The notes: generated by a model not told the origin, from the letters alone. Shown: positions 9,701 to 46,641, counted from the first letter of the stretch. The stretch is 64,000 bases of DNA from Escherichia coli (GCF_001677475.2 NZ_CP012497.1), one strand, 5' to 3'. Translations and numbers: made by a program.

Positions 9701-10056
9701 TTTTGAACCAACTCTTTTTACTTGTTGTAACCGCCCGAGATGACTGACTACGTAATCGCCAGGGCAAACATCTTCTATTGGTTTATAACCATTTTTACAA
9801 AGAACCATATGCCCCGCGGTAAAACATGGTGTTCCCCGACGAGCACGTCAGGGGATTCGATTTCCCCAGCCAAGACTTTTTTGGCAAGTTTTGTCATGTC
9901 GCCAAGGTTGGCGACATGGGGCCAGCGGAGCGCAAGAACGGCAGATGGAAAAGGCTCGATTTCAGCAAACCACGCCGGACGCATACCCAACGGTTCCCAG
10001 GCAATACTCGCGGCTTCAATTCCACTGCAAACAGATCCATAGCACAGCTCTTTCAC
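6800..10056 (-). CDS. dmt: bifunctional DNA methyltransferase (C5-cytosine domain plus Dam-like N6-adenine domain), intein-containing, frame broken near 9834-9837
   Basis: C5-MTase motifs [40 protein letters not shown]; Dam motifs FVGGGAV and DPPY at the C-terminus; GTG start overlaps the hrdC stop; the N-terminal 77 codons are in a different frame, joined across a C-run. Confidence 0.85.
8804..9826 (-). mobile_element. intein with LAGLIDADG homing-endonuclease domain, inserted at the catalytic Cys of the C5-MTase
   Basis: 341-aa insertion starting CFTAGHMVL and ending ILNGAVVHN followed by Cys+1 of CQAFSIAG; LAGLIDADG-like motifs [13 protein letters not shown] and [11 protein letters not shown]. 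Confidence 0.75.
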
Positions 10057-19293: not shown

Positions 19294-20883
19294 ATGTCTC
19301 AATATTCAATTCAACAGTCATTAGGTAATGCATCCGGCGTCGCGGTTAGCCCGATCAATGCAGATGCGACGTTATCTACCGGTGTTGCATTAAATAGCAG
19401 CTTGTGGGCTGGTATTGGCGTATTTGCGCGTGGCAAGCCGTTTACTGTTCTTGCGGTTACTGAGTCCAATTACGAAGATGTTCTCGGCGAACCGCTGAAG
19501 CCGTCTTCCGGCTCACAGTTCGAACCAATTCGCCATGTATACGAAGCTATTCAGCAAACGTCTGGTTATGTTGTCCGTGCTGTTCCGGATGATGCGAAGT
19601 TCCCGGTTATTATGTTCGATGAATCAGGCGAACCGGCTTACAGTGCGTTGCCATACGGTTCTGAAATTGAACTTGATAGCGGCGAAGCCTTTGCTATCTA
19701 CGTTGATGATGGTGATCCGTGTATTTCACCTACCCGTGAGTTAACCATCGAAACGGCAACAGCGGACAGCGCAGGTAATGAACGCTTCCTCCTGAAACTG
19801 ACCCAGACGACTTCGCTCGGCGTGGTAACGACCCTGGAGACACACACTGTGTCTTTGGCGGAAGAAGCGAAAGATGACATGGGCCGCTTGTGTTATCTGC
19901 CTACGGCTCTGGAAGCCCGTTCTAAATATCTGCGCGCGGTTGTTAATGAAGAGCTGATTTCGACGGCGAAAGTAACAAATAAAAAATCGTTGGCGTTCAC
20001 TGGTGGTACCAACGGTGATCAGTCGAAAATCTCAACCGCTGCGTACCTGCGTGCGGTGAAAGTGCTGAACAATGCGCCGTACATGTACACCGCTGTTCTT
20101 GGCCTGGGCTGCTATGACAATGCGGCTATCACCGCATTAGGTAAAATCTGTGCAGATCGCCTGATTGATGGCTTCTTTGATGTCAAACCGACATTAACGT
20201 ACGCAGAAGCACTACCAGCTGTTGAGGATACCGGTTTACTTGGTACCGATTATGTAAGCTGTTCTGTCTATCACTTCCCGTTCTCCTGCAAAGACAAATG
20301 GACCCAATCCCGTGTGGTCTTCGGTCTGTCTGGCGCGGCGTATGCGGCGAAAGCTCGTGGCGTTAAGAAAAACTCCGATGTCGGCGGTTGGCATTACTCA
20401 CCGGCTGGTGAAGAACGTGCCGTCATTGCTCGTGCATCACTTCAGCCGCTGTATCCTGAAGACACCCCGGACGAAGAAGCTATGGTCAAGGGCCGACTCA
20501 ATAAAGTATCTGTAGGTACTTCGGGCCAGATGATCATCGATGATGCTTTAACTTGTTGCACGCAGGACAACTATCTGCATTTCCAGCACGTACCATCCCT
20601 GATGAACGCAATCAGCCGTTTCTTTGTCCAGTTAGCCCGACAGATGAAGCATAACCCGGACGGCATTACTGAGTCTGGACTGACTAAAGGGATGACCAAA
20701 CTTTTAGATCGCTTTGTCGCCTCCGGCGCTCTGGTGGCTCCTCGTGATCCTGATGCTGACGGTACAGAACCGTATGTGCTGAAAGTTACGCAGGCGGAAT
20801 TCGATAAATGGGAAGTAGTCTGGGCCTGCTGCCCGACTGGCGTAGCCCGTCGTATCCAGGGCGTACCGCTGCTTATTAAGTAA
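19294..20883 (+). CDS. tail sheath-like protein (position of P1 gene 22)
   Basis: 529-aa ORF next to the capsid-like gene; size and position match the P1 sheath gene; no motif verification. Confidence 0.5.
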   Translation: MSQYSIQQSLGNASGVAVSPINADATLSTGVALNSSLWAGIGVFARGKPFTVLAVTESNYEDVLGEPLKPSSGSQFEPIRHVYEAIQQTSGYVVRAVPDDAKFPVIMFDESGEPAYSALPYGSEIELDSGEAFAIYVDDGDPCISPTRELTIETATADSAGNERFLLKLTQTTSLGVVTTLETHTVSLAEEAKDDMGRLCYLPTALEARSKYLRAVVNEELISTAKVTNKKSLAFTGGTNGDQSKISTAAYLRAVKVLNNAPYMYTAVLGLGCYDNAAITALGKICADRLIDGFFDVKPTLTYAEALPAVEDTGLLGTDYVSCSVYHFPFSCKDKWTQSRVVFGLSGAAYAAKARGVKKNSDVGGWHYSPAGEERAVIARASLQPLYPEDTPDEEAMVKGRLNKVSVGTSGQMIIDDALTCCTQDNYLHFQHVPSLMNAISRFFVQLARQMKHNPDGITESGLTKGMTKLLDRFVASGALVAPRDPDADGTEPYVLKVTQAEFDKWEVVWACCPTGVARRIQGVPLLIK

Positions 20884-20892
20884 GGGAATACA

Positions 20893-21708
20893 ATGAGCAA
20901 AAACTTTTTTCAATCCGGGGCATTTTTGGGGAATGGACTGTCCCGTTTCGCTTTGAACTCTGATCCTGTGCAGCTGATGGAGTCTGCCCGAGCAAGCGCC
21001 GAACCGCTAACAGATCCTGTTATTAATAATAATCCGGAACCGGCGGCACAGACTAACGATAACGTTCCATCTGACCCGGCTCCTGAGCAAATTCTGGAAG
21101 GGAAAGACGGTAAAGAATGGACCGTCGAACAGGCGCACCAGATGATTCTGGAAGCTGCAAATCGAAGTGCTATGCAGAATGCGTTGAGTGATGCGGCCGA
21201 CGCCGTTTTCGCCTGGGCTGATAGCGGTGATCTGACTTTCGACTCCCTTGATGGTTTCGTTCAAGCTATCGCTGGTATCTCTGACGACGACGACTCCGAA
21301 GTTACAGAAGAACAGGACGATGCCTATAACGAAGCATGGGCAAATGTTGCTGACTTCCTCGCAGCATGCGGTGTAGATGATGACCTGATCGAAGCACTGG
21401 CTGACGATGAGGACGACGACGCAGCTGCTGATGTTGGTGCCTCTATCGCTGGTTTAGATAGCGACGACCGCGACGAACTGGAAGCGGCGTTTGTTGTTGC
21501 TGGCACTTCTGATGAAATGCTGACTGAAGCATTTAAGAAGGTTGTTCGTAACGGTGAGATCAAACTCATCCGTAAACGCCTGCGTAAAAAACGTCTGACT
21601 GCGGCTCAAAAATCGGCGCTGAAAAAAGCTCGTCGAAAAGCCCAGACCGGCGCGGCAAAACTTGCCCGCAAAAAGTCAATGAAACTGCGCCGTAAGCGCC
21701 TTGGCTAA
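20893..21708 (+). CDS. acidic virion-associated protein with basic C-terminal tail
   Basis: 271-aa ORF, Asp/Glu-rich core and Lys/Arg-rich C-terminus (KRLRKKRLTAAQKSALKKARRKAQ). Confidence 0.35.
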   Translation: MSKNFFQSGAFLGNGLSRFALNSDPVQLMESARASAEPLTDPVINNNPEPAAQTNDNVPSDPAPEQILEGKDGKEWTVEQAHQMILEAANRSAMQNALSDAADAVFAWADSGDLTFDSLDGFVQAIAGISDDDDSEVTEEQDDAYNEAWANVADFLAACGVDDDLIEALADDEDDDAAADVGASIAGLDSDDRDELEAAFVVAGTSDEMLTEAFKKVVRNGEIKLIRKRLRKKRLTAAQKSALKKARRKAQTGAAKLARKKSMKLRRKRLG

Positions 21709-21743
21709 AGGAGGAGGCCGGAGAACTCCGGCCTTTAACTTGA

Positions 21744-22325
21744 ATGGCTCCTATAGCTTATGGGGTTTACAGCCAGGCTGACGGTGTATCGCCATATCTG
21801 AAAGTTACTTTAACGAACTCTCAGTACCAGGTTACCGGATATATCAGCCAGGGAGCGGCAATGAACATGGCCCAGAATTGGGAAGCGCCGTTTACCGGTA
21901 TGTCCATGGGATCTGTTTCTGGTGCTCTGGGTGGTTTTGTGCAAGTAGGTACTGAAACAACGTCGGTTGCCCGTTGGAATAGCTTAATGGTTTGGGAAGG
22001 GGGGACTCCGCCGACGTTCACGCTGCCTGTAACTTTCATTGCTTTGAACAATCCATTCATTGAAGTTTCAGGCGCTATCGCCGCGTTGACAGCCATGATT
22101 AGCCCGGAACTAAAAGCGGCCAATGTTGGTGGTCGAATCCCGGAGCGCGTGACGCTAAACATTGGTCGCCGGATCAACATCACCGATGTCGCCATCCAGG
22201 ACTTAAGTTTTGATCTCGATGCGCCAAGGGACAGTAATGGATATTTCCTGAAAAACACCGTCAACCTCCAGTTGACCGGTTCTTCGATATATAACAGCTC
22301 CGATATTGTTCGGGCGTTCCAGTAA
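21744..22325 (+). CDS. hypothetical tail protein
   Basis: 193-aa ORF in the late structural operon, followed closely by the next gene. Confidence 0.35.
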   Translation: MAPIAYGVYSQADGVSPYLKVTLTNSQYQVTGYISQGAAMNMAQNWEAPFTGMSMGSVSGALGGFVQVGTETTSVARWNSLMVWEGGTPPTFTLPVTFIALNNPFIEVSGAIAALTAMISPELKAANVGGRIPERVTLNIGRRINITDVAIQDLSFDLDAPRDSNGYFLKNTVNLQLTGSSIYNSSDIVRAFQ

Positions 22326-22336
22326 AAGGATTTTAT

Positions 22337-22846
22337 ATGGGGCACAATAACACTAAGGGAAACCGTAAATTTATTAAGGGCCGCTATACTGCCAACGCGG
22401 CCAAAGGCGAACGACTGGTATCTTCTGAATTCCAGCTCACTTTTGCAGGCCATGAAGATATCAGCGTACTGGTTCGCACGTCGCAAATCCCTGAAATGAC
22501 CCGCGAGGATGTGGAGGACTATGGCCCGAATGGTGTGAAGTTCAACCAGCACGGTCCAATCCGTAACTCCGGGGAAATCCAGGTCCAGTGCGTGGAGACT
22601 ATCGAAGGCGATATTCTTCAGTTCATTAAAGATCGCATTGCGGCGAAGGACTATGTTGATATCACGATGGCTGCGACCCCTGAATCCAAATCTTCCGGGG
22701 TTAACGCCGTGACAAAAGCTGCTACAACAATTGAAATGTTGGACTGCAAAATCTACAGTGATGCAATCGACTTTAGTACCGAAGATGTGAATGCTGCTGT
22801 GCGCCCGTCACTTCGTATCGTCTACAACTGGATTGAGTGGGATTAA
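22337..22846 (+). CDS. hypothetical tail protein (possibly tube-like)
   Basis: 169-aa ORF, last gene of the structural operon, followed by a terminator. Confidence 0.35.
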   Translation: MGHNNTKGNRKFIKGRYTANAAKGERLVSSEFQLTFAGHEDISVLVRTSQIPEMTREDVEDYGPNGVKFNQHGPIRNSGEIQVQCVETIEGDILQFIKDRIAAKDYVDITMAATPESKSSGVNAVTKAATTIEMLDCKIYSDAIDFSTEDVNAAVRPSLRIVYNWIEWD

Positions 22847-22865
22847 AAGTCATCCCTTGTATTTT

Positions 22866-22890
22866 AAAGCTCCTACGGGAGCTTTTTTGT
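22866..22890 (+). terminator. intrinsic terminator
   Basis: AGCTCC-TACG-GGAGCT hairpin followed by TTTTTT. Confidence 0.6.
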
Positions 22891-22929
22891 GCTTAAATTA
22901 TGCCGGTATAGATAGATTTTGAGCATGTT

Positions 22930-23226
22930 ATGGAAATTGATTTTTCATACTCTCCTGAGACGATAGAAAGAAGATTCGAAATAATTGGATGCATAACTAT
23001 TTCAGATGAGCATTATTGGATTCTCTATGATGCCAATACATGGTTATGTGCCTTAGCAGAATGTCAGGCATCGTTATGTGTAGGGGAGGGGGCTTTTCGA
23101 CATAAGGTGCTGGCTACACTTGAAGTGAACACGTTACGATATTGGTGTGTAGAAATACTTAGTGATAACAAAGAATTGCATTTATTATTGCTGAATAAGT
23201 GTGCTTCTCTGCGCAGAAAAGCATGA
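22930..23226 (+). CDS. hypothetical small protein (accessory island)
   Basis: 98-aa ORF in a low-GC island with no recognisable motif. Confidence 0.3.
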   Translation: MEIDFSYSPETIERRFEIIGCITISDEHYWILYDANTWLCALAECQASLCVGEGAFRHKVLATLEVNTLRYWCVEILSDNKELHLLLLNKCASLRRKA

Positions 23227-23391
23227 GAAAACCCAACCGCTCTCCCGTAATTATCAGAAGAATATGTGCGGAAAGTTATAGCTAGCTATTGAAAAGCTAA
23301 AGTAGATCGGTTAGATTTGCCTTACTCATCTACCATGTGTAGAAAGAGCGATCGAACCCGATACATAGTAATATGTGTCGGGTTCAGCTTT

Positions 23392-23856
23392 TTATGTCCC
23401 AAGTGCTCTTTTTCTGCTTTGTTTGAGTGTTCTGATTTTACTGTCATAGGTTACAACATAGGCTGTTTTGAGAAGCCAATAGTCTCTACGTGCGGATAGC
23501 ACAACAACGTAGTTTTCATACTCATTCCAGATTACCCACTCTTCAGTTGGTCCTCGTCTTTCAGACCAACATGATATATCGCAATGGTTATAATTCCTTA
23601 TCATATGCGCGATCCAGCGAATTCGTTTGCACCGTTCAAGATCGGGTATACGTTCTTCTTCTATTTTTCCCTCTGATACTAAATGCCAAAATCCGAACTC
23701 TTTCCCATCATATTCCGGTGAATAACGTAATCGAACAGGGAGACCCTTAAACGTTATATTAGAGATTAAAATATCTTCTCTGACAACATCATATACATCG
23801 TCTATATACTCTTGCCAACTTCCATTGAAGTACAATAAATCTGGCATTTGAAGCAT
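23392..23856 (-). CDS. hypothetical protein, downstream partner of the DUF3800-like gene (possible Rx5H HEPN-like motif)
   Basis: About 154 aa starting MLQMPDLLYF; ATG overlaps the upstream stop (TGATG); contains RIRWIAHMIRNYNH; low GC. Confidence 0.4.
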   Translation of the reverse strand: MLQMPDLLYFNGSWQEYIDDVYDVVREDILISNITFKGLPVRLRYSPEYDGKEFGFWHLVSEGKIEEERIPDLERCKRIRWIAHMIRNYNHCDISCWSERRGPTEEWVIWNEYENYVVVLSARRDYWLLKTAYVVTYDSKIRTLKQSRKRALGT

Positions 23857-24560
23857 CAGCGAGCCTCCCACACGAAAATATTAAATTTACTTTCTGTTGG
23901 AAGAGTGCTTTTTAGTAACTCCCTGTTTGTATGTGATTTTATCCTGTTTATGACTTGGATTTTTCCCGCGTTGCTATTCATTCCTCGATGAACGTAGCCT
24001 AACGCACCAATGAAAAGATCCGTTAGCTGCAATTGTTGCACTTCATGAGATCGTATATGTTGAATTCTGTTTATCGACTCATGATTGTAATCATAGCGAT
24101 CATTGTGAAGAACCCCTCTTAATTTCTCAATTTTTTCAATACCTAAAGTATCTTTTATATCTAGGTAGATATTGTATGTGTTGTTACTTTCTATTATGTT
24201 TTTTAAGACATAAAAAAACATCTTATAATAGAAAGTATTATGATCTTGATGGAATCGAGCATGGTCCAGTTGCTCTTTATCAGGAACAACAACACCTCTA
24301 AAGCGCAATGCTGGGTTGCTGAAGAAGTAATCTACGACATCTAAGTAAAATTCAACTTTGGACGCAGATACTTTAGTCCACTTGATTTCGAAATCAGGTT
24401 TTAGATTGTGTTTTAATTTTAATTCCTTGATGTCTCTAGCAATTTTTTTTGTGATAGTGCCTGGACACCAAAGCGCACCCAATACCATGACTTTATTATG
24501 ATCATTTAGTAGGTGACAGGATTCATCGCAGAATACATTAAATGTTCTTCGGTTCAACAT
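23856..24560 (-). CDS. DUF3800-like protein (candidate defence/accessory effector)
   Basis: 234-aa ORF with N-terminus NVFCDESCHL, similar to the xIDESG start recalled for DUF3800 proteins; low GC; sits where P1 rlfA/rlfB would be, downstream of repL. Confidence 0.45.
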   Translation of the reverse strand: MLNRRTFNVFCDESCHLLNDHNKVMVLGALWCPGTITKKIARDIKELKLKHNLKPDFEIKWTKVSASKVEFYLDVVDYFFSNPALRFRGVVVPDKEQLDHARFHQDHNTFYYKMFFYVLKNIIESNNTYNIYLDIKDTLGIEKIEKLRGVLHNDRYDYNHESINRIQHIRSHEVQQLQLTDLFIGALGYVHRGMNSNAGKIQVINRIKSHTNRELLKSTLPTESKFNIFVWEAR

Positions 24561-24710
24561 GTTAACTCCACTTATTGTTAGGTAGAATTGTCCGTTAGTT
24601 GTTTATTAATTGCAATAATGGGACGTCCAGTTTTGGCAACTGTGTCCTCTTACCAAGACGCCTATGAGTTTGCCTCATGGCAAACTAGAAGTGTTGAAAG
24701 TATGTATAGT

Positions 24711-24725
24711 TCTAATTAGAGCAAT
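24711..24725. promoter_or_regulatory. C1 operator-like site between repL and the DUF3800-like operon
   Basis: Reverse complement ATTGCTCTAATTAGA, partial match to the C1 consensus. Confidence 0.35.
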
Positions 24726-24728
24726 TCA

Positions 24729-25574
24729 TTAACCTCTGAATCCTGCCGGTATACCCCATTGTTCGTTATCTTTATTTTTGGCTAAAACCTCATTAAGAGC
24801 TTCGTTTACCGTCATGCAATGCGGCAGATTATCGAAGTTTGATATCCCGCCAATATCAGGAGAACGCTTGTTCTTCAGGTAAGCATATTTCCGCGCTGCC
24901 GCCTCTACTTTCTGCTTGAACTCATGTTTTTGAGCGCGTTTTTTGGATAACCGCAGATTGTCAGCCTTTGCTTTTGCCTCAGCGATCCATGAAGTCAGTT
25001 TTTTGAGGCTGGTCGTTCCGGTACCGCCGGAAACTGATCTTTTTGTTTTTTTAATTTGTGACTTCTTATTCTTTATTGCCACGTCATCCTGACAGGGGGA
25101 GGGGGTATCATTTTGACATGGGGGTGTGGATAAAAAATCAAATAAAGCCAATGTGTTAGCGAGAACAGCTTTAACCTTGGTTGCGGCTGAAGAGATCTTT
25201 AATTTGCTTTCAATTAGCGCATTTTTGGCTTGTTGAGCAAAGGCTAAAAAGGATGGTGTAAACCGGTACAGGTTAGCGCGGCGTTCACGGTGATCGCCGA
25301 TAACAATCTCTACCGACAGGATTCCTTTGTTTACAGCTTCACGGAATGCACGAACGACGGTTGATTGGCTATAACCAGTTTCTGCCGCGATCAGGCGGTG
25401 AGGCTTGTGAATGAAGTATTCACTGGTTGTTGCCGCGAGATTTGCACATTGCGACAGGATATGCCCGGCGCTACGGGATAGACCGGAGTGTGTTACAAAG
25501 CAGGCCAATTCATAGCCAGAAAAAGTAAAATCGCTCATCGTTATACAGCTCAGGAAAGTGACTTTAGCCAGCAT
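24729..25574 (-). CDS. repL: lytic replication protein RepL-like
   Basis: 281-aa ORF immediately downstream of kilA as in P1; HTH-like segment GYSQSTVVRAFREAVNKG. Confidence 0.55.
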   Translation of the reverse strand: MLAKVTFLSCITMSDFTFSGYELACFVTHSGLSRSAGHILSQCANLAATTSEYFIHKPHRLIAAETGYSQSTVVRAFREAVNKGILSVEIVIGDHRERRANLYRFTPSFLAFAQQAKNALIESKLKISSAATKVKAVLANTLALFDFLSTPPCQNDTPSPCQDDVAIKNKKSQIKKTKRSVSGGTGTTSLKKLTSWIAEAKAKADNLRLSKKRAQKHEFKQKVEAAARKYAYLKNKRSPDIGGISNFDNLPHCMTVNEALNEVLAKNKDNEQWGIPAGFRG

Positions 25575-25603
25575 TACAATGCTGGTGGTTCTTACTACGT
25601 CTG

Positions 25604-26404
25604 TTAGCGCGTTGCCGCGACAGGTACCAGCACACCAGCATCAAGCAATCGCTTCATCAGCCACTGCTGACCTTTGCCGGTTATACGAGTCGTGAAAGAA
25701 ATCCTGCTTCCATTGCTTGTATCGATCACGGTTTCTTTAAGGGTGAAATACCCATGGGATATGTATTCTTGTTTGGGGACGTTCCTGCGTTCACCGGTTG
25801 CGATCAGAATTCCGTTATCACGCAACCAGGTGAAGAGATAGTTTTGGCCCAGGCCGAGCACTTTGGCATAGTTGCCGATTAGAACCCCGCTGGCGGTAGC
25901 AACGCGTTCGGCGAATTCGACTTTAGGTGCATCCATAAGCATTTTTTGCTCCAGCCGTTGCTTTTGCTCTGCCAGGTCGGCAGCCAAACGGAGAGCTTCA
26001 GGGAGACTCTGCGGAATAGCAGGTTGTAATCTTCCGGCTCGATAGTCGATAAATGTCTGGTTTACCTTCAGCCGAAACGCGGGAGAAATCCAGCCTGCGT
26101 ACTCCACAGCGAGCAATTCATGGGCAAACGTGCCGCCGCCACGGCCTTCGAACGAAACTATGCAATTCTGCATAGTTTCTTTTTCAAGCTCTTCGATGAG
26201 CTGTTTGGCTGACAGCGTTCTTAGCCATTGAGCTGGCGCTTTATGGGCACCGAGTCCGCTCGCTCTGTGTAGAGCATTAAGGTTGTAACGGCCAGCGCGG
26301 TCGGTCGTAATTTCAACACCACAAATAACGGGCAGAGTGGTTGAAGGATCGACATTTTGATGAAGGTTTGATATATTCATATCCGCATTGAATGTTTGTT
26401 GCAT
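25604..26404 (-). CDS. kilA: KilA (KilA-N domain plus antirepressor-type C-terminal domain)
   Basis: 266-aa ORF; KilA-N-like N-terminus (VICGVEITTDRAGRYNLNALHRASG); C-terminal domain paralogous to the Ant C-terminus. Confidence 0.8.
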   Translation of the reverse strand: MQQTFNADMNISNLHQNVDPSTTLPVICGVEITTDRAGRYNLNALHRASGLGAHKAPAQWLRTLSAKQLIEELEKETMQNCIVSFEGRGGGTFAHELLAVEYAGWISPAFRLKVNQTFIDYRAGRLQPAIPQSLPEALRLAADLAEQKQRLEQKMLMDAPKVEFAERVATASGVLIGNYAKVLGLGQNYLFTWLRDNGILIATGERRNVPKQEYISHGYFTLKETVIDTSNGSRISFTTRITGKGQQWLMKRLLDAGVLVPVAATR

Positions 26405-26473
26405 TTTTTCTCCAAATTTGCATCAACCTTCAATCACCAGCTCGAAATGGTGATTATTTGCACTTATAAAACG

Positions 26474-26490
26474 AAATTTATTAGAGCAAA
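26474..26490. promoter_or_regulatory. C1 operator (P1 Op53-like) upstream of kilA-repL
   Basis: Reverse complement TTTGCTCTAATAAATTT (16/17 to consensus), about 70 nt upstream of the kilA start. Confidence 0.65.
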
Positions 26491-26568
26491 TTTTTCTAAC
26501 TCGATCCAGATCGGGTTGGACGATCTGCTCAGAAACCTGCCAGTTTGCTGGCAGGTTTTTTTCTTTTA

Positions 26569-27612
26569 TTAACCTATTGCTACTGGTTTTAACAAACCAG
26601 CATCAAGTAGCTTGCGAGTTAACCACTGCTGGCCTTTACCCGTTAATTGGGGCGTCAGCCGTATCTGGTAGCCATTTTCATCATCCAGCACCACTTCTTT
26701 CACCGTGAAATACCCGGCATTAATGTATTGCTGGCGCGGTACGTTTTTGCGCTCACCAAAAGCCATGAGAATGCCGCTCTGGCGCAACCATGAGAAAAGG
26801 GCGTTTTGCTTAAGTCCAACGACCTTTGCAAAGTTCCCGATCAGGATTCCATTGGCCACTGATACCCGGTCGGCAAAATCGACTTTAGGGGCTGCGGCCA
26901 CCAGCTGTTGTTCCAACTGCATTTTCTGTTCTGCCAACTCGGCAGCCAGGCGTAGAGCTTCTGGTAATGTTTGGGGGATCGATGGGGCAGGGGAGTTTGC
27001 CTGCTGCAATTCTTCCAGTTTGTCGATCAGCGAACGGCGGACCGCTTTTGACTCGCGCGCGGCAACTCGCAGGGCTTGTTTGTAGGTCATGGTTATGACA
27101 ACCATAGGCGTACCGCCACCTGGCGGCACGGTTGCACTTTTTGTGTAACCGTCCTCACCTTCTAATTCGTCGAGTATTTTTTCGATGAATTTATTGTTTC
27201 TAACCAATGGTTCTCCACATAACTTGCGTGCCTCATTGACCATCTTCAACAATGTTTGGCTGTCGATTGTGTCTCCGGTGTTGGGGATGACATTCACGGC
27301 TGGTGCTGGCGTAGCTGAAGCAACAGGTGCTGGTTTTTCAACATTCAAATTATTACCGGTCATTCTATGTGCCTCCTTTCTCATTTCTGCTGCCACTGTT
27401 GCGTAACGTAGACGTCCTTGTTCAATCAAATAATCCCTGATCTCGGCTATCAGTAGCCTGTTGATCACAGCCTTATCTATCCGGGTATAAAAACGCTTGG
27501 TTATCATGAAATAGTTGGCAATTGCGCCGGGGATCTCCCGTGTCGGCATACAGGCAGTATGCAGGGCGATCGCTTCGGCTATTTCATTCCGGGTGACGAG
27601 AGGTTTTTTCAT
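26569..27612 (-). CDS. ant: antirepressor Ant-like protein
   Basis: 347-aa ORF whose C-terminal domain (LPEALRLAAELAEQK..GILIGNFAKVVGL..) is paralogous to the KilA C-terminus; start overlaps the icd stop. Confidence 0.7.
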   Translation of the reverse strand: MKKPLVTRNEIAEAIALHTACMPTREIPGAIANYFMITKRFYTRIDKAVINRLLIAEIRDYLIEQGRLRYATVAAEMRKEAHRMTGNNLNVEKPAPVASATPAPAVNVIPNTGDTIDSQTLLKMVNEARKLCGEPLVRNNKFIEKILDELEGEDGYTKSATVPPGGGTPMVVITMTYKQALRVAARESKAVRRSLIDKLEELQQANSPAPSIPQTLPEALRLAAELAEQKMQLEQQLVAAAPKVDFADRVSVANGILIGNFAKVVGLKQNALFSWLRQSGILMAFGERKNVPRQQYINAGYFTVKEVVLDDENGYQIRLTPQLTGKGQQWLTRKLLDAGLLKPVAIG

Positions 27613-27830
27613 AAACCCCCCTGAACGTCGGCAGAGAAGGGGAGGTTCCAGTAACTAAGTGAATTGCGCGAGTTAGTTGAAAAACGGGCAGTAAAAATGC
27701 AGGGGCCATCAGGCAATTGAGAGCGTGCTTCGTCTTCTGTTGCTGCGATAACGAAGTGATAGTGGTGTTTTTGGCAGGAGTAAAAGCGCCAGATAAATTC
27801 AGGATGAGTAGGGGTAGGGATAGTAGCCAC
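27609..27830 (-). CDS. icd: Icd-like small protein
   Basis: 73-aa ORF overlapping the ant start (ATGA), same size and position as P1 icd. Confidence 0.5.
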   Translation of the reverse strand: MATIPTPTHPEFIWRFYSCQKHHYHFVIAATEDEARSQLPDGPCIFTARFSTNSRNSLSYWNLPFSADVQGGL

Positions 27831-28163
27831 AATGGCAGCCTCCTTTTGCTAATTTAAGGAGCTACCGCGTGAGGTTCCAATCTCAATGGCGGTAGCACTG
27901 ACTGGGTTGGAACTACCGGCGCAAAAGGGAACCGGCCTGCCTTTCGGCAGCCCAGCCAGCACTACCATTGATCTCGGAGCTATGTGCTACGTATGGCTGT
28001 GCGATGGCATGACACAAAAAAAGACGCTTTTGGCGTCTGTGTCGCCTTTTGCATTATCCGGGGTTCCAATCCCGGCATCCATTTTACTAAGATGCCTGTT
28101 TAGGATAAACCGAAAATGCATTAGCACGCAAGCAAGTTAATGTAGCATATGAAGCTAAAAAAA

Positions 28164-28180
28164 TAAAATAATTAGAGCAA
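28164..28180. promoter_or_regulatory. C1 operator-like site (P1 Op51-like) upstream of the icd-ant leader
   Basis: Reverse complement contains TTGCTCTAATTATT, partial consensus match in an AT-rich region. Confidence 0.4.
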
Positions 28181-28327
28181 CTTGTAACCATGTAAATTAT
28201 TTCCCTGGTAACTAAAATGTATGAGTTTAATTGATATGGGTCAAAGATTTTGACCATTGCATGGTGAAACTTTATGCTACAAAATGTTATTTTAAGGCGT
28301 TTTATCTGTGGCAGGAGATAGTTAATC

Positions 28328-28678
28328 ATGTCATCTGAACATGTTCGTAAAGGTGTAACAAATGCGAAATTCAATGAAGAGCAATCTAATATTCTCTTTA
28401 TTGAAATAGGAATTCTGTCAATACTGATAGGTTTAATGTCTAAATCATGGTGGGCCTTTGGCGGTTCTTTTCTTGGACTGATTTTTAGTTTAAGAATAAA
28501 ATTTCTGGCAATACCATTGATGATTGTATTTAGCTTAGTATGGGGAGCTATTGGCTATAGTATTGGTACTTTGTTTGAATCAACAGCAGCAAGTATTGTT
28601 TTGGGGGTAATTGCTTTCCTGAGTGGTTTGGGTACTCATTTTGCTGCCGTGCAATGGGCAAATGATATTGCAGAATAA
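28328..28678 (+). CDS. small polytopic membrane protein (about 4 TM helices)
   Basis: 116-aa ORF with four hydrophobic segments; low GC; first gene of a 3-gene + strand island. Confidence 0.5.
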   Translation: MSSEHVRKGVTNAKFNEEQSNILFIEIGILSILIGLMSKSWWAFGGSFLGLIFSLRIKFLAIPLMIVFSLVWGAIGYSIGTLFESTAASIVLGVIAFLSGLGTHFAAVQWANDIAE

Positions 28679-28700
28679 TTACAGATAAGAAGCGAAAAGA

Positions 28701-29177
28701 ATGAATATGAGATGGTTTTTATTATTTGTATCGTTAGTTTCAGCAGGAACATTTGCAAAAATTGATCCTCTACAATGGAATGTAATTGAAGAGAGAGGGG
28801 GGAGAGAATATACAATCCATAATCATAATGGTGATAAGATAAGTTTTTTATGTGATATGGGATTCATGTATGGTTCACCAGATAGTGCAGGTAGTTTAGG
28901 CTTGTTGCTAAGTTCGTCGAATAATAAAAAAGAGTATAATGCTGACAAGAATAAAATAGTATTAACTATAGATGGTGAGCAATATCCTTTTAGCAATCTT
29001 GGATCAATGGTTGGAGATTCTTGGTGGTATGCCTTTTGGCAAGATGCAGCAGATTCAAATGCTAATATGATTGATGCTTATGTTGATAATGAAAAAATTG
29101 CTACATTCCCTCTTTCTGGGCTAAGTAAGTTGTATCAACAAGCCAAAATGGATGGATGTATTAAACGAGGCAAATGA
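28701..29177 (+). CDS. secreted periplasmic protein
   Basis: 158-aa ORF with signal peptide MNMRWFLLFVSLVSAGTFA; Trp/Tyr-rich; low GC. Confidence 0.5.
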   Translation: MNMRWFLLFVSLVSAGTFAKIDPLQWNVIEERGGREYTIHNHNGDKISFLCDMGFMYGSPDSAGSLGLLLSSSNNKKEYNADKNKIVLTIDGEQYPFSNLGSMVGDSWWYAFWQDAADSNANMIDAYVDNEKIATFPLSGLSKLYQQAKMDGCIKRGK

Positions 29178-29218
29178 TCTTTCTGTGTTAAAGATTAACG
29201 CAATCAATAAAACATTGG

Positions 29219-30286
29219 TTGCGTAATATTCTATTATATAAATGGAATAATATGACAAAAATTACTAATTCTAATGAGTTGAAGTTACTGTATAAACAGT
29301 CAGTGCTCATTCCATCATACAAAGATCACGTAGCGATCTTGCAAAAACAATTAGGAATAGAAAAACATTCTTTTCAAAATATGACAAGATTGAATAGACA
29401 AGCTGTAATTAGTAACTCTCTTCGAAAACAATTGGCTAGTATGCCGAACTTGGCTGGAATAGGCAGCAAGTATCGTGAACATATCGCGATTTTACAGAAA
29501 CAGACTCAGGCTCTTTTCCCTCATGACGCAAATAGATATATTCAAATGCTAAGGAAACAGGCCGAAATAGCTATGCCATTACGAAAACAGCTTGAGGTGC
29601 TTAATAAGCAAGCTGGTTTAAATAACATGCAAGCGATACTTAAAGAATTACAACAAAGTGCAAGTTATAAAACAGATGTAAGCCAAGACATAAAGAAAGT
29701 ACTAGATCACTATGCTAGAACAAGAAATGCTTCATTACATCAAATAATAGAGCAGGGGATTTCATCTATTGCGCAGGCTTATGCTGAAGGTGCTACTGAA
29801 ACATCACACACCAAAAGTAATGTTCAAAATAAAGGATTAAATAAACCTAGCTCAAAGTTTGTTGATTCATTTAAAGAGCTTCCTTATCCACTGCAATGGT
29901 TACTAATGGTTATATTTTCTCAAGTTGTGTTTGGTGCTTTTATTGATTACGGAAAAGAGAAAACCTTGCTGGGAATACACAAGGCAGAATCATATTTTAT
30001 ATCTCTGTTTGAGGATAAACCAATATCAAAACAACAATTAATTAAAGAAAACAAAGAAATTAGTTGGGAAGATCTCAATGGTTTTCGTTTTATAACTGGT
30101 GAGAACGTAAGATTACACGTCAGTCCTTCTATAAATAGTGAGGTGATTGAATGCATTGGCAAAAATACTATAGTGGCTGTTTTAGATAAAAAAGATCGCC
30201 AATGGCTTTTCGTGCAGGTTAAATCAGGGGACGAGTTTATTACTGGATGGATTACACGAACATACACAAAGCCTCTTAAGGCTTGA
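29219..30286 (+). CDS. membrane-anchored coiled-coil protein with C-terminal SH3b-like domain
   Basis: 355-aa ORF with tandem helical repeats (HVAILQKQ, HIAILQKQ, LRKQ), one TM helix (LQWLLMVIFSQVVFGAFIDYG) and an SH3b-like C-terminus (GENVRLHVSPS..IVAVLDKKDRQWLFVQVKSGDEFITGWI); low GC. Confidence 0.5.
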   Translation: MRNILLYKWNNMTKITNSNELKLLYKQSVLIPSYKDHVAILQKQLGIEKHSFQNMTRLNRQAVISNSLRKQLASMPNLAGIGSKYREHIAILQKQTQALFPHDANRYIQMLRKQAEIAMPLRKQLEVLNKQAGLNNMQAILKELQQSASYKTDVSQDIKKVLDHYARTRNASLHQIIEQGISSIAQAYAEGATETSHTKSNVQNKGLNKPSSKFVDSFKELPYPLQWLLMVIFSQVVFGAFIDYGKEKTLLGIHKAESYFISLFEDKPISKQQLIKENKEISWEDLNGFRFITGENVRLHVSPSINSEVIECIGKNTIVAVLDKKDRQWLFVQVKSGDEFITGWITRTYTKPLKA

Positions 30287-30415
30287 ATTTTATCACCGTA
30301 TCTTGGGGCTGGGTGTTGATGACGATGTGCTACTTGAAGTACTTGGGTTTTTTAACGCAGCATCTGAAATGTGTAGACTGACCGGTAACAAATGACAACT
30401 CGTAGAATCGGGTAA

Positions 30416-30772
<357 letters not shown>

Positions 30773-30807
30773 GTTAGAAGCGCGCATATGGAAGTTATTC
30801 AAGATAA

Positions 30808-30837
30808 AACAGCGGCATTGGCCGCTGCTTTTTTATT
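30808..30837. terminator. bidirectional intrinsic terminator
   Basis: CAGCGGC-ATTG-GCCGCTG hairpin with A-run upstream and T-run downstream, between the + ORF end 30772 and the mom stop 30850. Confidence 0.6.
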
Positions 30838-30849
30838 CATTACGTGGGA

Positions 30850-31587
30850 TCACTTCGGGTATGGCTGAATCCTGAATAGCTTAGTATTTAGTCGCTTTTT
30901 TGCGCGCTTGTTCAGGAATCTGATGTAGCGATACTGATTAAATTTGTGTACCACCGCCCGCTCCTTATTAGCCCGCAAATACTCGCCTCGTTGTCCTCCA
31001 CGCTTAATCGCGTTCATCGTTATCTCGTGATACCACTCGCCGTCCAGCTCGTAGAACGTGCTTTCATGGCTACCAATAAAATCAAAATTAGATGCCTGAT
31101 ACACAACACCTGCACGTCCGCAGCGTTCGTCTGCAAAGGACTGAACCCACTCCACTGATGGATACAGTAACCTGATGGTTTTCAGTGCGTAGCTGATAGC
31201 CCGTGATTCAGAGTTGCGGGGCATGTCGTCGTGTAACCACATGCGGTTCAGTTCCATATAGCCCCGGTTATCCGTTTCCAGCACGACCCGACGCCCTGAG
31301 TTGGGATTAAGGGCGTATCCCCACTGGAGAACGCCAACCAGATCACGTCCGCTGAATACCCCCAGATGCAACCAGGAGTTATTCACAAAACGGCGGGAAT
31401 AGTGCTTTGTCTGAATGATTGTGCGGGCCAGCCAGCAGGATATGGTTTCAACGCGCAGTTCCCTTGAACCATAGCCGACAATACGGCCTTCATACTCAAT
31501 AACGCAGGGTTTTGTAAGGATGCGTGATTTCTTCTCTTTTCCCACAATACAGCTCCGTGGGATGCTCCCGGGCACTCGACATGACAA
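30850..31587 (-). CDS. mom: Mom-like DNA modification protein
   Basis: ORF directly downstream of and overlapping a Com homologue, the Mu com-mom arrangement; true start probably downstream of 31587. Confidence 0.7.
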
Positions 31588-31681
31588 TGTAACGTTTACA
31601 ACGAGGGCATTTGATTTCTATATGCTTAAAACTTCCTTTAAACAGCAATTTATTGCAGTTTTTACAACGAACAGCATCCAT
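31496..31681 (-). CDS. com: Com translational regulator (zinc finger)
   Basis: 61 aa [43 protein letters not shown], colinear with Mu Com as recalled (CxxC..CxxC). Confidence 0.85.
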
Positions 31682-31803
31682 GATCCCACCTGTGTATTAA
31701 CCAGATACGATAGCCCTGAGGGCCAGGGTATTTAATCACAGATGATGCAAACTGACGATCGATACGATTGTATCGATCGTTATAAACTATACAAAATGAT
31801 GAC

Positions 31804-32393
31804 TTAATAACCGGGCGTTAACGCTCTTATATCGCTCAGTGTGGACAGCAGGGAAAGTTGCTCTTTCATCTCGCGCTGGCGTTCGTGGATTTTAAAGCCC
31901 TCCGCCACCATGGCCACCATCATGGCATCGTTCAGCGCAATAAGTTTCTCCCTGGTCAGTACGACGTTGTTATTATCCGCATCAGTCCAGAAAAATCCCT
32001 CCGGAAGCAGTCCGGCCTGCGCTGCTGCAACCACGGGGCAAGGCGTGACTGCGAGGTTTTTCCGCCATCAAAACGACGGCCATCAAACGTGAAAATAAAC
32101 TCAACGTTTTCCTGACTGTCGCGCCATGCCTCAATTTCCCGCCTTTTGGCATCCTTTGCCGCTGCAATAAGTTCCGGCGTGACGGTGAACGGGGCGATTT
32201 CGCCCCATTTCCCGCTTTGCAGCTCCTGCCAGATGTGCTGGCCTGTCGGGGCCATATCATCCTGTATGGCAGTATACAGGGCGAACTCCGTTTCACCTTC
32301 AAATAACACCTCGCAGTCAACCGCACCATTTTCAAGATAATGTGCGTTTCTGATACCTTTCACCGCTCTGATTTTCATGCCTGATTTCCTCAT
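31804..32393 (-). CDS. tail fibre assembly protein, frame broken at a T/A run near 32057-32061
   Basis: ORFs 31956-32393 and 31804-32034 are N- and C-terminal parts of one Tfa-like protein; an alternate frame reads KNLAVTPCPVVAAAQAGLLPEGFFW across the junction. Confidence 0.6.
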
Positions 32394-34684
32394 TACTCAA
32401 TGCGTACAAAAAGACCGATAAAGCCACGCTGAGTACCATAATTGTTACCCAGGCCCGAAAGCGCCGTGTAACGACCGGGGAAGTTGTATTCACCGGCACC
32501 GCCAATCACAACCTGCGGTGAGGATGCGTATGTCCCTGTATCACTAACCTGTGCACTCATGGCCAGAGGACCAAGACGGGAACCCGGCACAGTATCACCG
32601 AGTCCCAGAGAAGCATTTTCACCAAAACTTTCTCCCTGATATACCGCCATAATCGGCACACCGACGGCCGGGTATTGGTAATATGAGAACGGACCATTAC
32701 CGGCGGTTGAGGACATCAGATATGCCAGGGAGTTGCCGTCATACACAATAAGGCTTGATGTTGCATTCCAGCTGTTACCACTGTAGCGATAACGCATACA
32801 ATGTATGCTGTGCTCATCCTCGTAATACTGGTTGTAGTACAGCAGCGTTTTGAATTTACGCGCTGAGTCTGAACCATCGTTATCAGAGGGTGACCACATC
32901 ACATCAATGATACCGTTAAATTTCGTGGTGCCCACCAGCAGCGTGGAGGAGTCCGCAATACTGACCGCATAACGCCCCGGGGTGACTGTCTGCAGCCATA
33001 TAACGAAATCAGCCTGTCCGTTAAATGACAGAGCTTCGGCGCTGGTGAATGCCTGTCCAAACCCATACATCCCGGACAGGGCCAGCCTGCCCGGTGTGCG
33101 GTCACGGATATCACTCTGGGGTTCCATCGTCGCAGCCGTGCTCAGCTCAAGCTCCGTGCGCATGGCTTCAGCCGTGTCATGCGCCAGCAATGCGCGGCCC
33201 TTCTCTGACAGCAGAGACAGTGAGGCATTCCCGTCTGTATTGAAGTACAGAAGATTATCTGCCCGTTGCGTCAGTGCGCTGATTGCCGTTAAGACGTCAT
33301 TAAGCGGTTGTTTGCCTGCCAGCGCGTTTGTGATTGTCGTCGCAAAGTTCGGGTCATTGCCCAGCGCCGCTGCCAGCTCGTTCAGGGTGTCCAGAACTTC
33401 CGGCGATGAGCCAACCAGCGCAGCAAGCAGTTTGCGCACAAACGCTGCGTTCGCTGCTTCCAGACCGGCGGCATCATCCGGTGGGGTTGGGGTGGTTGGG
33501 GTGCCGGTGAAGGCCGGGCTGTCCAGTGGCGCTTTTGTTTTCGTCTCGTCCATGACGGTTTTGACAGCCTTTGGCGTGGCAGCCAGTTCCTCGCTGTCGT
33601 TGTCCGTATCACTACACAGTTGCACCAGACCTTTTTCTGTCGTGGAGGCATTTGTTGCATTCAGGTCATCAACTATCTGCTGCGCCTCATCCCTGTACTG
33701 TTTCGCTTCCTGCGCATTGTCTGCACCTGCATCCTGGCTGGCTTTAGCCTGTCGGGCGTATTCGGCGGCGCTGTTTTCATGCCCGAGTGCAGCATTTGCT
33801 GCATTTTCCGCGCTGGTTGCAGCTGATGATGCGGCATTATGATAAAGGCGGGCGCGTTCGGCGGCATCGACTGATTCGTCCCGCGCTGTGCCTGATGACT
33901 GTGCGCTGTTTTCTGCCTCACCCGCAAAACGTTCCGCATCACTGCGGGCTGTTACCGTTGCCTGCACATCCTGTGCGGTCTGCTGTGCGCTTTGTGCTGC
34001 ATTATCAGCGTGATTTTCCGCATTCTGTTCGCTTTGTGCGGCAGCTTTGGCACTGGCTTTTGCCTCGCCGGTCAGCGTTGCAGCATCAGCAAGTTTATCG
34101 ACCGCTTTCCGGACTATCGTGTCGGCATCCTTAACGGCCTGCTCTGCGCGGGCTGCATTCTGACTGGTTTCAGAGGCAAGCTCTTCAGCTTTCTGCACAT
34201 TGCCTGCAATTTCTTCTGCATCCTGCCGTATTTCCCCGGCGAGGGTTTCTGTATCCTGGCGGGCCTGTTCAGCCGCGTCCGCGTGCTCTCCGGCTTCTTC
34301 CGCGCTTTGCTGCGCCTGTTGCGCCAGTTCTTCGAATTTCTTCAGGGCTTCCGGGCGCAGGTCAATATCGGTTGCACCCAGAAAATCATTCAGTGAACCG
34401 TCCTGTGAATCTTCATAAACACGAATGACACCGATTTCTGAAAGGCGCTGTTCGCTTTGTGTCAGGCGAACGCTGTACACACCCGGCTGAACGGAAAAGT
34501 CGTACTCCCCGCTCTGTGTGGTTACGTGGCTGAAAACACCTTTCAGGATCCCTGCACGGTTGTGCAGGGAGGTCAGAGTAATGGTTGCGCCGCCCAGCGC
34601 TTCTCCCGTGGGCGTTTTAATCACACCTTTAAGCTGCGGCATCGGGACGCTCCGGCCAGTTGATGGCATTAAAGGAGGCTTCAT
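32393..34684 (-). CDS. side tail fibre protein (lambda Stf-like architecture)
   Basis: 763 aa; N-terminus like the Stf N-domain (GVIRVYEDSQDGSLNDFL), Ala/Ser/Glu-rich repeats, conserved blocks LAATPKAVKTVMDETKTKAPLDSPAFTGTPT and LNELAAALGNDPNFATTITNALAGKQP. Confidence 0.8.
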   Translation of the reverse strand: MKPPLMPSTGRSVPMPQLKGVIKTPTGEALGGATITLTSLHNRAGILKGVFSHVTTQSGEYDFSVQPGVYSVRLTQSEQRLSEIGVIRVYEDSQDGSLNDFLGATDIDLRPEALKKFEELAQQAQQSAEEAGEHADAAEQARQDTETLAGEIRQDAEEIAGNVQKAEELASETSQNAARAEQAVKDADTIVRKAVDKLADAATLTGEAKASAKAAAQSEQNAENHADNAAQSAQQTAQDVQATVTARSDAERFAGEAENSAQSSGTARDESVDAAERARLYHNAASSAATSAENAANAALGHENSAAEYARQAKASQDAGADNAQEAKQYRDEAQQIVDDLNATNASTTEKGLVQLCSDTDNDSEELAATPKAVKTVMDETKTKAPLDSPAFTGTPTTPTPPDDAAGLEAANAAFVRKLLAALVGSSPEVLDTLNELAAALGNDPNFATTITNALAGKQPLNDVLTAISALTQRADNLLYFNTDGNASLSLLSEKGRALLAHDTAEAMRTELELSTAATMEPQSDIRDRTPGRLALSGMYGFGQAFTSAEALSFNGQADFVIWLQTVTPGRYAVSIADSSTLLVGTTKFNGIIDVMWSPSDNDGSDSARKFKTLLYYNQYYEDEHSIHCMRYRYSGNSWNATSSLIVYDGNSLAYLMSSTAGNGPFSYYQYPAVGVPIMAVYQGESFGENASLGLGDTVPGSRLGPLAMSAQVSDTGTYASSPQVVIGGAGEYNFPGRYTALSGLGNNYGTQRGFIGLFVRIE

Positions 34685-46099: not shown

Positions 46100-46641
46100 G
46101 GCAGAACCTCCTTCCAGAAATGACTGATAACCTGTTGCAGCTCCTGCTGGTTGGCAGAAGACAGCCCCAGAAATTCACGTTGTGGAATGTTCATCATGCG
46201 GTTATGTGCGCCGACGGTCTGCCAGACCGGATATTTCAGCGCCCGCCCGAAACACTGCGAGATAAGCCGTTTGTGGGCGCTGACCGGCACACTGCCGGAA
46301 AAGCCGTCATTCATGATGCGGGCATAATCCAGCGGTGAACCGATACGCACCACACGGTTTTCCACGATGTACTGGATACTCTCCAGCAGATGGCCTTCAC
46401 CGCGCAGCAGACTCTGGTTGCCGTGGCGGGTCTTTTTGTACCCGTCAGACCAGTCCGGCCAGCGTTCGCCACCCGGACTGGTTTTCTCATCGATGATGCG
46501 GCGGCGGGTCTGTGATTCCACCACCGCACCGATGCTTTCCAGCAGCTCTGCCTGCAATGAACCATCTGCCAGCTTTTCAACGGCGCGGCGGATATCCTCC
46601 AGACGCTGGTCACCGCTGACCTGTACAGAAATCCCCATCAC
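46096..46641 (-). CDS. virion morphogenesis protein (Mu G-like)
   Basis: 181-aa ORF, translationally coupled to neighbours, Mu order. Confidence 0.6.
   Translation of the reverse strand: MMGISVQVSGDQRLEDIRRAVEKLADGSLQAELLESIGAVVESQTRRRIIDEKTSPGGERWPDWSDGYKKTRHGNQSLLRGEGHLLESIQYIVENRVVRIGSPLDYARIMNDGFSGSVPVSAHKRLISQCFGRALKYPVWQTVGAHNRMMNIPQREFLGLSSANQQELQQVISHFWKEVLP

Follow-up and report, generated by a model that had tools for sequence, protein, structure and literature searches.

A com–mom cassette of the phage Mu type in a Mu-like prophage inserted into a P1-like phage-plasmid of Escherichia coli

Do the two overlapping reading frames at positions 30850..31681 of a 64,000-nucleotide stretch of Escherichia coli DNA (GCF_001677475.2 NZ_CP012497.1; hereafter the window) form a working DNA-modification operon of the Mu type, and to which of the mobile elements around them do they belong? 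Both ORFs found in the ORF scan lie on the minus strand and overlap each other (Table 1). By megablast, the 847 bp from 30825 to 31671 show 88–89% DNA identity to the com–mom region of Mu, SfMu, D108, and several Mu-like phages of Yersinia, whose annotations name the two genes Com and Mom. This similarity is far beyond chance. Judging from its sequence, the region is very probably a functional Mu-type operon. It is the transcription unit closest to the right end of a Mu-like prophage. The biochemical activities, the timing, and the transcriptional control ascribed to the pair in the following paragraphs are all carried over from Mu and would apply here by analogy. The com–mom pair represents an already known system in its ordinary, intact form. 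ORFs on the plus strand within 30850..31681 were rejected as genes, because they run opposite to coding sequence that is strongly conserved.

Table 1. Coordinates of the features in the window, ordered by position
Feature	Position	Strand	Description
Dmt	6800..9808	-	C5-cytosine methyltransferase domain interrupted by an intein, plus Dam-family N6-adenine methyltransferase domain
pmgC 5' half	30440..30723	+	truncated by prophage insertion; P1 nt 46576..46293
Prophage right end (attR)	30724..30849	-	ends ...TTTTGCGCGCTTTA-3' at 30724
TCTTGAA-core direct repeats	30741-47, 30763-69, 30798-804		probable transposase sites
Intrinsic terminator of the com–mom operon	30804..30828	-	bidirectional: T-run on the plus strand too
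mom	30850..31545	-	predicted 231-aa GNAT-fold adenine-N6 glycyl (carbamoylmethyl) transferase, GUG start
com	31496..31681	-	predicted 61-aa zinc-ribbon translational activator of mom
TIS	31540..31562	-	UCCCACGG-AGCUGUA-UUGUGGGA, 8 bp
Upstream extension of the 245-aa ORF	31546..31587	-	TTG 31587, GUG 31575; com coding sequence and Com hairpin
Com-binding hairpin (predicted)	31562..31575	-	5'-GUGC CCGGGA GCAU-3', 4-bp stem, 6-nt loop, motif CC-CGG-GAG
mom-start RNA segment			candidate Com target, 5'-GAGUGCCCGGGAGCAUC-3'
com–mom regulatory region	31682..31803	-	putative promoter region; replaces the Mu gin–Pmom region
Dyad GCCCTCAGGGC	31713..31723	-	preceded by conserved GATTAAATACCC; candidate late-activator site
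OxyR-like site	31754..31790	-	14/20 OxyR consensus positions; overlaps the palindrome
Palindrome CGATCGATAC-N4-GTATCGATCG	31756..31779	-	carries two GATC (Dam) sites
Mor/C-family activator	57146..57595	-	Pfam Mor E 3.6e-30; flanked by gemA and the lysis gene

The larger of the two ORFs reaches, at its maximum, from an upstream TTG at 31587 to 30850 and comprises 245 codons. It matches the Pfam Mom profile (PF25680) over positions 1–202 of 202, with an E-value of 1.3e-75 and a score of 254 bits against a cut-off of 27.1; no NCBIfam model matched either this protein or the Mor-like protein of the same prophage. The alignment with Mu Mom, which the first-pass annotation had proposed as a check, gives 97% identity over 231 residues with zero gaps, and the solved Mom structure (PDB 8BV8) is matched with an E-value of 1.2e-154. 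Residues W48, H58, Y59, R111, S124, D149, R151, Y159, and W181 have been reported as essential or important for Mom in a 241-residue numbering (PMC13219725). They correspond to W38, H48, Y49, R101, S114, D139, R141, Y149, and W171 in the 231-residue numbering used in PMC7261163, the offset of 10 being confirmed by the position of the S-to-A exchange in 8BV8 and by PMC7261163, and all nine are invariant between the window and Mu. The helix-turn-helix (HTH)-like insertion at residues ~175–209, which is needed for activity (PMC13219725), is present as well, since the alignment is free of gaps; its sole substitution is V to E at position 188 (231-residue numbering). Comparison of the window and Mu genes gives a dS of 0.38 and a dN of 0.024, and the resulting dN/dS of 0.06 indicates that mom is under strong purifying selection.

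As for the length of the protein, the first-pass annotation had described an ORF of 245 residues in the mom position. The ORF exists and is Mom, but 245 residues is only its maximal extent; translation most likely starts at GUG 31545, which gives 231 residues. The annotated GTG start of Mu mom and its upstream GGAG ribosome-binding site are conserved at this position in the alignment to AF083977. Counted from GUG 31545, com overlaps mom by 50 nt, exactly the value of Mu.

The smaller ORF, previously likened to Mu Com as a 61-residue zinc-finger protein, can be assigned to that family. It matches the Pfam model Zn_ribbon_Com (PF10122) with 30.6 bits (cut-off 22.9), and shares 70% identity with Mu Com, from which it differs in length by a one-residue deletion. 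Its cysteines C6, C9, C25, and C28 align with C6, C9, C26, and C29, the zinc ligands of Mu Com (PMC3299994). A PDB sequence search with Com returned only insignificant matches to S27e zinc ribbons. RefSeq labels Com as a 'DNA-binding transcriptional regulator', which conflicts with the RNA-binding role described in the literature.

The target of Com has been described as a hairpin located immediately 5' of the translation-inhibition hairpin (TIS), with a C-G closing pair and a hexaloop holding the sequence 5'-CC(N)2-3GAG-3', which is also the SELEX motif for Com, while the TIS stem holds the GUG start of mom (PMC6483171). The first-pass annotation had suggested looking for such a hairpin at the mom start, and a hairpin of this design is present there, beside the predicted TIS. 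Neither of the two results named beforehand as refuting the com–mom interpretation, a downstream ORF unlike Mom or a missing Com target, was thus obtained. The TIS pairs half of the mom Shine-Dalgarno sequence GGAG (31556..31553) and the GUG start codon (31545..31543), and the isolated TIS hairpin has the same predicted energy (-8.5 kcal/mol) and the same 8 bp in the window and in Mu. The two hairpins adjoin each other and have one nucleotide in common, the final U of the Com hairpin.

For comparison, 43 related loci were gathered from IMG/VR, and the hairpin segment was tabulated for 45 loci. In the Com hairpin, the stem is kept throughout, opening with either A-U or G-U, and variation is confined to the three N positions in the loop (UGC, CGG, AAA, CAG, ACA, UUC, and UCA). 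The TIS stem is constant except for a single C-G to U-G change, and its loop varies. The 45 loci comprise nine distinct variants, in which the 11 stem pairs are paired in 100% of cells, against 27–58% for slid partners. Covariation within these nine variants is nearly nil (two one-sided changes and no two-sided change), so the counts express compatibility with the two structures rather than proof of them, and the conservation of the stems could partly reflect overlapping coding constraints. Minimum-free-energy folding of the window RNA in 81-nt and 38-nt contexts did not recover the Mu-type hairpins (z-scores of +1.6 and -0.2), and the CCCGGG of the loop is able to pair elsewhere. Due to the lack of two-sided changes and to the different fold in the larger context, the Com hairpin and the TIS are supported by comparison with relatives and not by thermodynamics. 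Against Rfam, positions 30600..32000 yielded nothing beyond chance matches below the threshold (STnc430 and Prion_pknot), and no curated family covers the Com target. The window holds a natural variant of the Com/target pair, with the loop CCGGGA and a Com that is 70% identical to that of Mu, and this variant supports the published CC(N)2-3GAG rule.

The similarity to Mu ends at ~31671, about 10 nt inside com. Neither a gin ORF, nor an invertible segment, nor the Mu C-binding sequence was found upstream of com by the ORF scan and the Mu alignment; this region holds a DUF4376 gene, separated from com by 122 bp, and a tail-fibre gene. When the 135 nt upstream of com are compared over all loci, two classes emerge, a Mu-type class and a window-type class, the second with ~20 loci. 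Both have in common a TATAG followed by two CGATCG motifs ~10 bp apart, to which the Mu-type class adds a third GATC. The two GATC sites of the 122 bp upstream of com compare with about 0.34 expected by chance. The OxyR-like site that overlaps them ties for the best match in the 64 kb (one other site reaches 14 of 20) by a consensus count only, and the experimentally known OxyR site of Mu scores 13/20 by the same count. Mu mom is under Dam/OxyR control (PMC2909390), and we infer that this gating is retained in the window.

The dyad GCCCTCAGGGC occupies the position of the Mu C site, to which its sequence is unrelated, and is conserved in the window-type relatives as GCCCTCCGGGC, with the general form GCCCTC(A/C)GGGC. 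A similar sequence, GCCTCCGGC, is found upstream of the lysis gene, where the dyad GCC(C)TCCGG(G)C lies at a different spacing from the likely -10 element than the dyad upstream of com. A late-promoter motif search of the window with TGTGATTAAATACCC gave five matches with three mismatches or fewer, against 1.5 expected, none of them convincingly placed. The dyad may be the binding site of a phage late activator, but this assignment remains a guess. The sigma-70 scan upstream of com detected no consensus promoter, in line with a late promoter that needs an activator. The prophage encodes a single protein of the Mor/C family, with GemA upstream and a GH108 lysozyme downstream, which by analogy with Mu is likely to activate the com–mom promoter; the activator site would then have changed together with its activator. 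At the other end of the operon, the intrinsic terminator was found on both strands by the terminator scan, and it is also present in the relatives.

Both the extent of Mom and its transcriptional control admit other readings. Mom could be longer, starting at TTG 31587 (245 residues) or at GUG 31575 (241 residues) instead of at GUG 31545. The reading frame is open up to 31587, and the codon 10 positions 5' of the mom GUG (AUG in Mu, GUG in the window) is one of these two in 45/45 loci; it is the origin of the 241-residue numbering, and PMC13219725, like UniProt, counts from this codon. Its conservation is explained, however, by its role as the 5' stem of the Com hairpin, and neither GUG 31575 nor TTG 31587 is preceded by a Shine-Dalgarno sequence. 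Moreover, the 14 extra codons of the 245-residue ORF show no conservation, and in the mom frame of Mu they include a TGA stop, placed between the TTG-equivalent position and the start codon of the 241-residue form. Published work on Com sets the start at the GUG within the TIS stem (PMC6483171), GenBank and RefSeq annotate 231 residues, and the Δ10 truncation of the 241-residue protein is fully active (PMC13219725). A longer protein appears very unlikely in view of these data, and the extension is probably not part of Mom. The second alternative concerns transcription, which might be unlike that of Mu, proceeding by read-through from the tail-fibre operon or from a constitutive promoter, with no Dam/OxyR gating; the GATC palindrome would then have another purpose, such as the binding of a phage protein. 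The loss of both gin and the Mu C-binding sequence speaks for this reading, as do the short distance from the DUF4376 gene to com, which is free of any intervening terminator, and the fact that the OxyR match consists of a consensus count. Nevertheless, the TATAG...CGATCG-N-CGATCG arrangement is common to the proven OxyR/Dam region of Mu and is conserved across the ~20 window-type loci, the OxyR-like site is unsurpassed in the 64 kb, and tight control is expected for Mom, which is toxic (PMC7261163). We regard control of a different kind as unlikely, although it deserves serious consideration, and retain for the next paragraphs a 231-residue Mom under Mu-like control.

Regarding the element that carries the cassette, Pfam searches identified a MuA C-terminal domain, MuB, Gam, GemA, the Mor-family protein, a GH108 lysin, a terminase, a Mu portal protein, and a gpT major head protein. 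The host of com–mom is a Mu-like transposable phage, which outside of com–mom reaches at most 72–75% similarity within the phage and plasmid collections. The cassette ends 126 bp from the true end of the prophage. This end, which the first-pass annotation had correctly taken for a Mu-like right end, could be placed at 30724 from the flanks of 12 independent insertions and from the P1 breakpoint: the 12 insertions have a common sequence through ...TTTTGCGCGCTTTA (...CTTTA) and diverge immediately after it. In E. coli chromosomes, the same right end adjoins unrelated genes such as vgrG, alr, fliH, and opp. It terminates in ...TTTA, compared to ...TTCA in Mu, and the left end lies beyond the window.

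The DNA on the other side of this junction belongs to a different element. Window positions 20000..30723, covering ant1, repL, kilA, and simC, show 97% identity to P1 46293..56300 and likewise to hundreds of P1-like plasmids. In the backbone before 20000, a domain search identified RepA, ParA, ParB, the DnaB-type Ban, and Dmt. The backbone is a P1-like phage-plasmid (Punavirus). The similarity to P1 stops at 30723, equivalent to P1 nt 46293, inside pmgC; the Mu-like prophage has jumped into this gene of the P1-like plasmid and disrupted it. The insertion also lies between the P1 late promoter LPsit and the genes tub, pmgB, and sit. Since pmgC is split and these three genes are cut off from LPsit, the P1-like phage is probably defective.

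Dmt is carried by the P1-like backbone, as had been stated. Its methyltransferase domains are recognised by Pfam (MethyltransfD12, E 1.8e-56; DNA_methylase, E 8e-22), together with LAGLIDADG_3, and by the NCBIfam models dam (245.6 bits, cut-off 114.85) and intein_Cterm; the matches to Intein_splicing and Hint are weak and sub-threshold. The earlier view of a composite element with two independent DNA-modification systems needs to be modified in two respects. Dmt and Mom are both encoded in the window, but they belong to two nested elements and not to a single unit. Full independence of Dmt and Mom may not be given either, since transcription of mom in Mu needs GATC methylation and Dmt has a Dam-family domain. 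It is conceivable, albeit with a small chance, that this domain could methylate the GATC sites of the operator, licensing mom also in hosts with too little Dam or none, and that Mom, whose substrate is any dsDNA of the cell, could in turn momylate the plasmid. If such a coupling were true, the plasmid would carry Dmt and Mom along as an anti-restriction package sufficient in itself.

Two further readings bear on the elements and not on the genes themselves. The cassette could be intact but inert, the prophage being a decaying remnant with no lytic cycle in which mom is never usefully expressed. Relative to the nearly identical prophage of RM9088, 1-nt deletions break the tail-fibre-associated DUF4376 gene (at 32035) and the MuA transposase gene (at 63585), which, if real, would make the prophage defective; in addition, RM9088 is the closest relative and its own mom is truncated by IS elements, and the left end of the prophage falls outside the window. 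However, each of the two frameshifts comes from the loss of one base in a G/C homopolymer, surrounded by DNA that is 99–100% identical, and the ban gene of the P1 backbone is likewise split into two ORFs. This homopolymer pattern is the signature of assembly error and not of decay. Besides, no damage is seen in com, mom, the hairpins, the terminator, or the end repeats, and purifying selection on mom is strong, so that an inert cassette seems clearly improbable to us. The remaining possibility, that P1 and Mu form a true hybrid phage in the window and that the phage-plasmid has recruited com–mom as its second system against restriction, would agree with the contiguity of the two elements in one sequence and with the joint presence of Dmt and Mom. 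It conflicts with the junction itself, which is a precise Mu-type end identical at many chromosomal sites and is followed by a complete Mu-like gene set; with the damage that the insertion causes to P1, through the splitting of pmgC and the separation from LPsit, instead of serving it; and with the distribution of the junction in pmgC, which was found in no record of the plasmid and E. coli genome collections searched. We consider a hybrid of this kind extremely unlikely, and the preferred reading is that of a Mu-like prophage, with its own com–mom operon, nested in a P1-like plasmid.

According to the mechanism proposed for this operon, transcription would take place late in lytic growth from a promoter within the regulatory region. 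This promoter probably needs the Mor/C-family activator. A second level of control, known from Mu, is probable too: Dam methylation of the two GATC sites within the OxyR-like operator would gate transcription. Translation of com would precede that of mom, which would be blocked by the pairing of its GGAG Shine-Dalgarno sequence and its GUG within the 8-bp TIS. Zinc-bound Com is predicted to bind the adjacent 14-nt hairpin through the CC-NNN-GAG motif of the loop, and this binding would open the TIS and allow the entry of the ribosome at mom. Mom, acting as a dimeric enzyme of the GNAT fold, would then transfer glycine from Gly-tRNA(Gly) to the N6 of adenine in double-stranded DNA, and the adduct would rearrange to N6-carbamoylmethyl-adenine (6-NcmdA), following the chemistry described for Mom (PMC13219725). 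In a new host, 6-NcmdA in the incoming packaged phage DNA would block many restriction enzymes.

Cassettes with at least 80% identity are found in 96 of 5426 complete E. coli genomes. Among the 111 places where mom occurs in complete E. coli genomes, 109 are chromosomal and two plasmid-borne, and a plasmid-borne context of mom is rare. The closest relative, RM9088, shows 99.6% identity to the window over 31123..32998 and is identical from 31126 to 32971 save for one indel, while the best full-length matches are only 94–95% identical. In the relatives, mom bears the name 'protein mom' or 'tRNA(Gly)-dependent adenine aminoacyltransferase Mom', and its partner is labelled 'Com family'. Annotation pipelines already recognise this copy, a close homologue, and its value for discovery is small; regulation and anti-restriction by com–mom are textbook knowledge, and the chemistry was resolved in 2026. 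The value of the locus lies elsewhere. It is a clean example of a temperate Mu-like phage transposing into, and probably crippling, a P1-like plasmid, and such nesting matters for the cataloguing of phage-plasmids and for assigning accessory genes to the right element. The locus also shows that the cassette moves among Mu-like lineages with differing ends and promoter regions, keeping the GATC/OxyR-like block.

Among the known systems, the closest is com–mom of Mu itself (AF083977, Mu_52/Mu_53; also D108 and SfMu), with 89% identity at the DNA level, 97% for Mom, and 70% for Com. The window has in common with Mu the 50-nt overlap, the GUG start, the GGAG Shine-Dalgarno sequence, the terminator, and the predicted Com hairpin and TIS, and in both cases com and mom are the last genes before attR. 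Unlike Mu, the region upstream of com is homologous only in the GATC/OxyR-like block, with two clustered GATC sites compared to three in Mu, and lacks gin, the G segment, and the C site. The Com hairpin of Mu is AUGC-CUGCGA-GCAU, whereas that predicted for the window holds CCGGGA in the loop and G-U instead of A-U as the first pair; the TIS loop is AGCUGUA in the window and AGAAACA in Mu. At the right end, the repeats differ from those of Mu, and the terminal dinucleotide is TA instead of CA.

The Mu-like prophages of E. coli exemplified by RM9088, STEC388, and VL40, a group that includes the Sp18-type prophages mentioned in PMC3299994, resemble the window in the cassette, the window-type regulatory region, the DUF4376 and tail-fibre genes, and the right end. 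They are nearly all chromosomal, in contrast to the window copy, which is inserted in P1 pmgC. The operator region can be compared with other Dam/OxyR promoters, such as Mu Pmom, agn43, and P22 gtr, which hold GATC inside an OxyR-like operator upstream of the promoter, the window resembling them by sequence only. PMC3299994 describes, in addition, that in FluMu, Pnm1, and Hia a com homologue precedes a DNA-modification gene (Hin1523, Nma1821, and Hia5, respectively) at the Mu-like right end. Contrary to the enzyme of the window, which is a bona fide Mom, these three proteins are Com-controlled, AdoMet-dependent non-specific m6A methyltransferases unrelated to Mom.

On sequence comparison with related loci from IMG/VR (L004-L046), the com–mom cassette, the Mu-type DNA-modification gene pair close to the Mu-like prophage's right end, is a mosaic. 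Among these loci and the window, the right end and the region upstream come in a Mu-type, a window-type, and one further type, and the Mom proteins are still 95-98% identical across them. Com and the loop of the Com-binding RNA hairpin at the mom start fall into discrete variants, where the loops UGC, CGG, AAA, and CAG encode C, R, K, and Q, respectively, in Com.

The transposable prophage interrupts pmgC in the LPsit late operon of the P1-like plasmid, at a point upstream of tub, pmgB, and sit, and the same junction was found in no database record. P1 late transcription would meet the bidirectional mom terminator (30804..30828), so that the P1-like phage is probably tail-defective. In addition, with about 37 kb added, this phage would exceed the P1 headful with terminal redundancy.

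Three genes appear split (see the table). Compared to the near-identical prophage of E. coli strain RM9088, the window lacks single bases in G/C homopolymers at 32035 and 63585, and the pattern of splits, including these losses, suggests assembly or homopolymer sequencing errors instead of decay.

Features of the P1-like plasmid and the Mu-like prophage in the window
Feature	Position	Strand	Details
Glycosyltransferase-like ORF	1595-2593	-	Adjoins ban in the P1-like backbone
P1 ban (DnaB-like)	3285..3962 + 2593..3309		Split in two; overlap 3285-3309
Dmt ORF	6800-9808	-	1002 aa
Plasmid/prophage junction	30723/30724, within 30440-30849		Insertion in pmgC
Prophage right end	30724-30737		Terminus ...GCGCGCTTTA-3', last dinucleotide TA
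DUF4376 gene	31804..32393		Split by deletion at 32035 (vs RM9088)
Mor/C-family activator gene	57146-57595	-	Flanked immediately by gemA and the lysis gene
MuA transposase	62677..63998		Split by deletion at 63585 (vs RM9088)

In the P1-like backbone, Dmt holds an intein-like insertion within its C5-cytosine methyltransferase domain, before the Dam-family domain, comprising a LAGLIDADG_3 domain (aa 215-278) and an intein C-terminal splicing motif (aa 315-336). The Hint/Intein_splicing matches are weak and sub-threshold; since the Hint match begins at residue 2, an upstream stretch in a different frame may hold the N-extein. Besides the OxyR-like site upstream of com (31754..31790), only one site in the window (7910-7946) matches the OxyR consensus 14/20; it falls within the coding sequence of dmt, and the match is probably due to chance. 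The glycosyltransferase-like ORF has a weak Glycos_transf_1 match (25.0 bits, below the cut-off of 26.4).

For Mu-type transposition, a terminus other than CA is unusual. Whereas Mu-type ends finish in ...CGCTTCA-3', this prophage family finishes in TA, and this end is shared by the prophage in the window and loci L003, L006, L012, L016, L017, L019, L022, L024-L027, and L036. The TA end is common to two lineages with unlike subterminal repeats, of the TCTTGAA and GGTATCAAA types. Finally, Mor and C are separate genes in Mu, while the prophage holds a single Mor/C-family gene, which implies a simpler middle/late transcription cascade.
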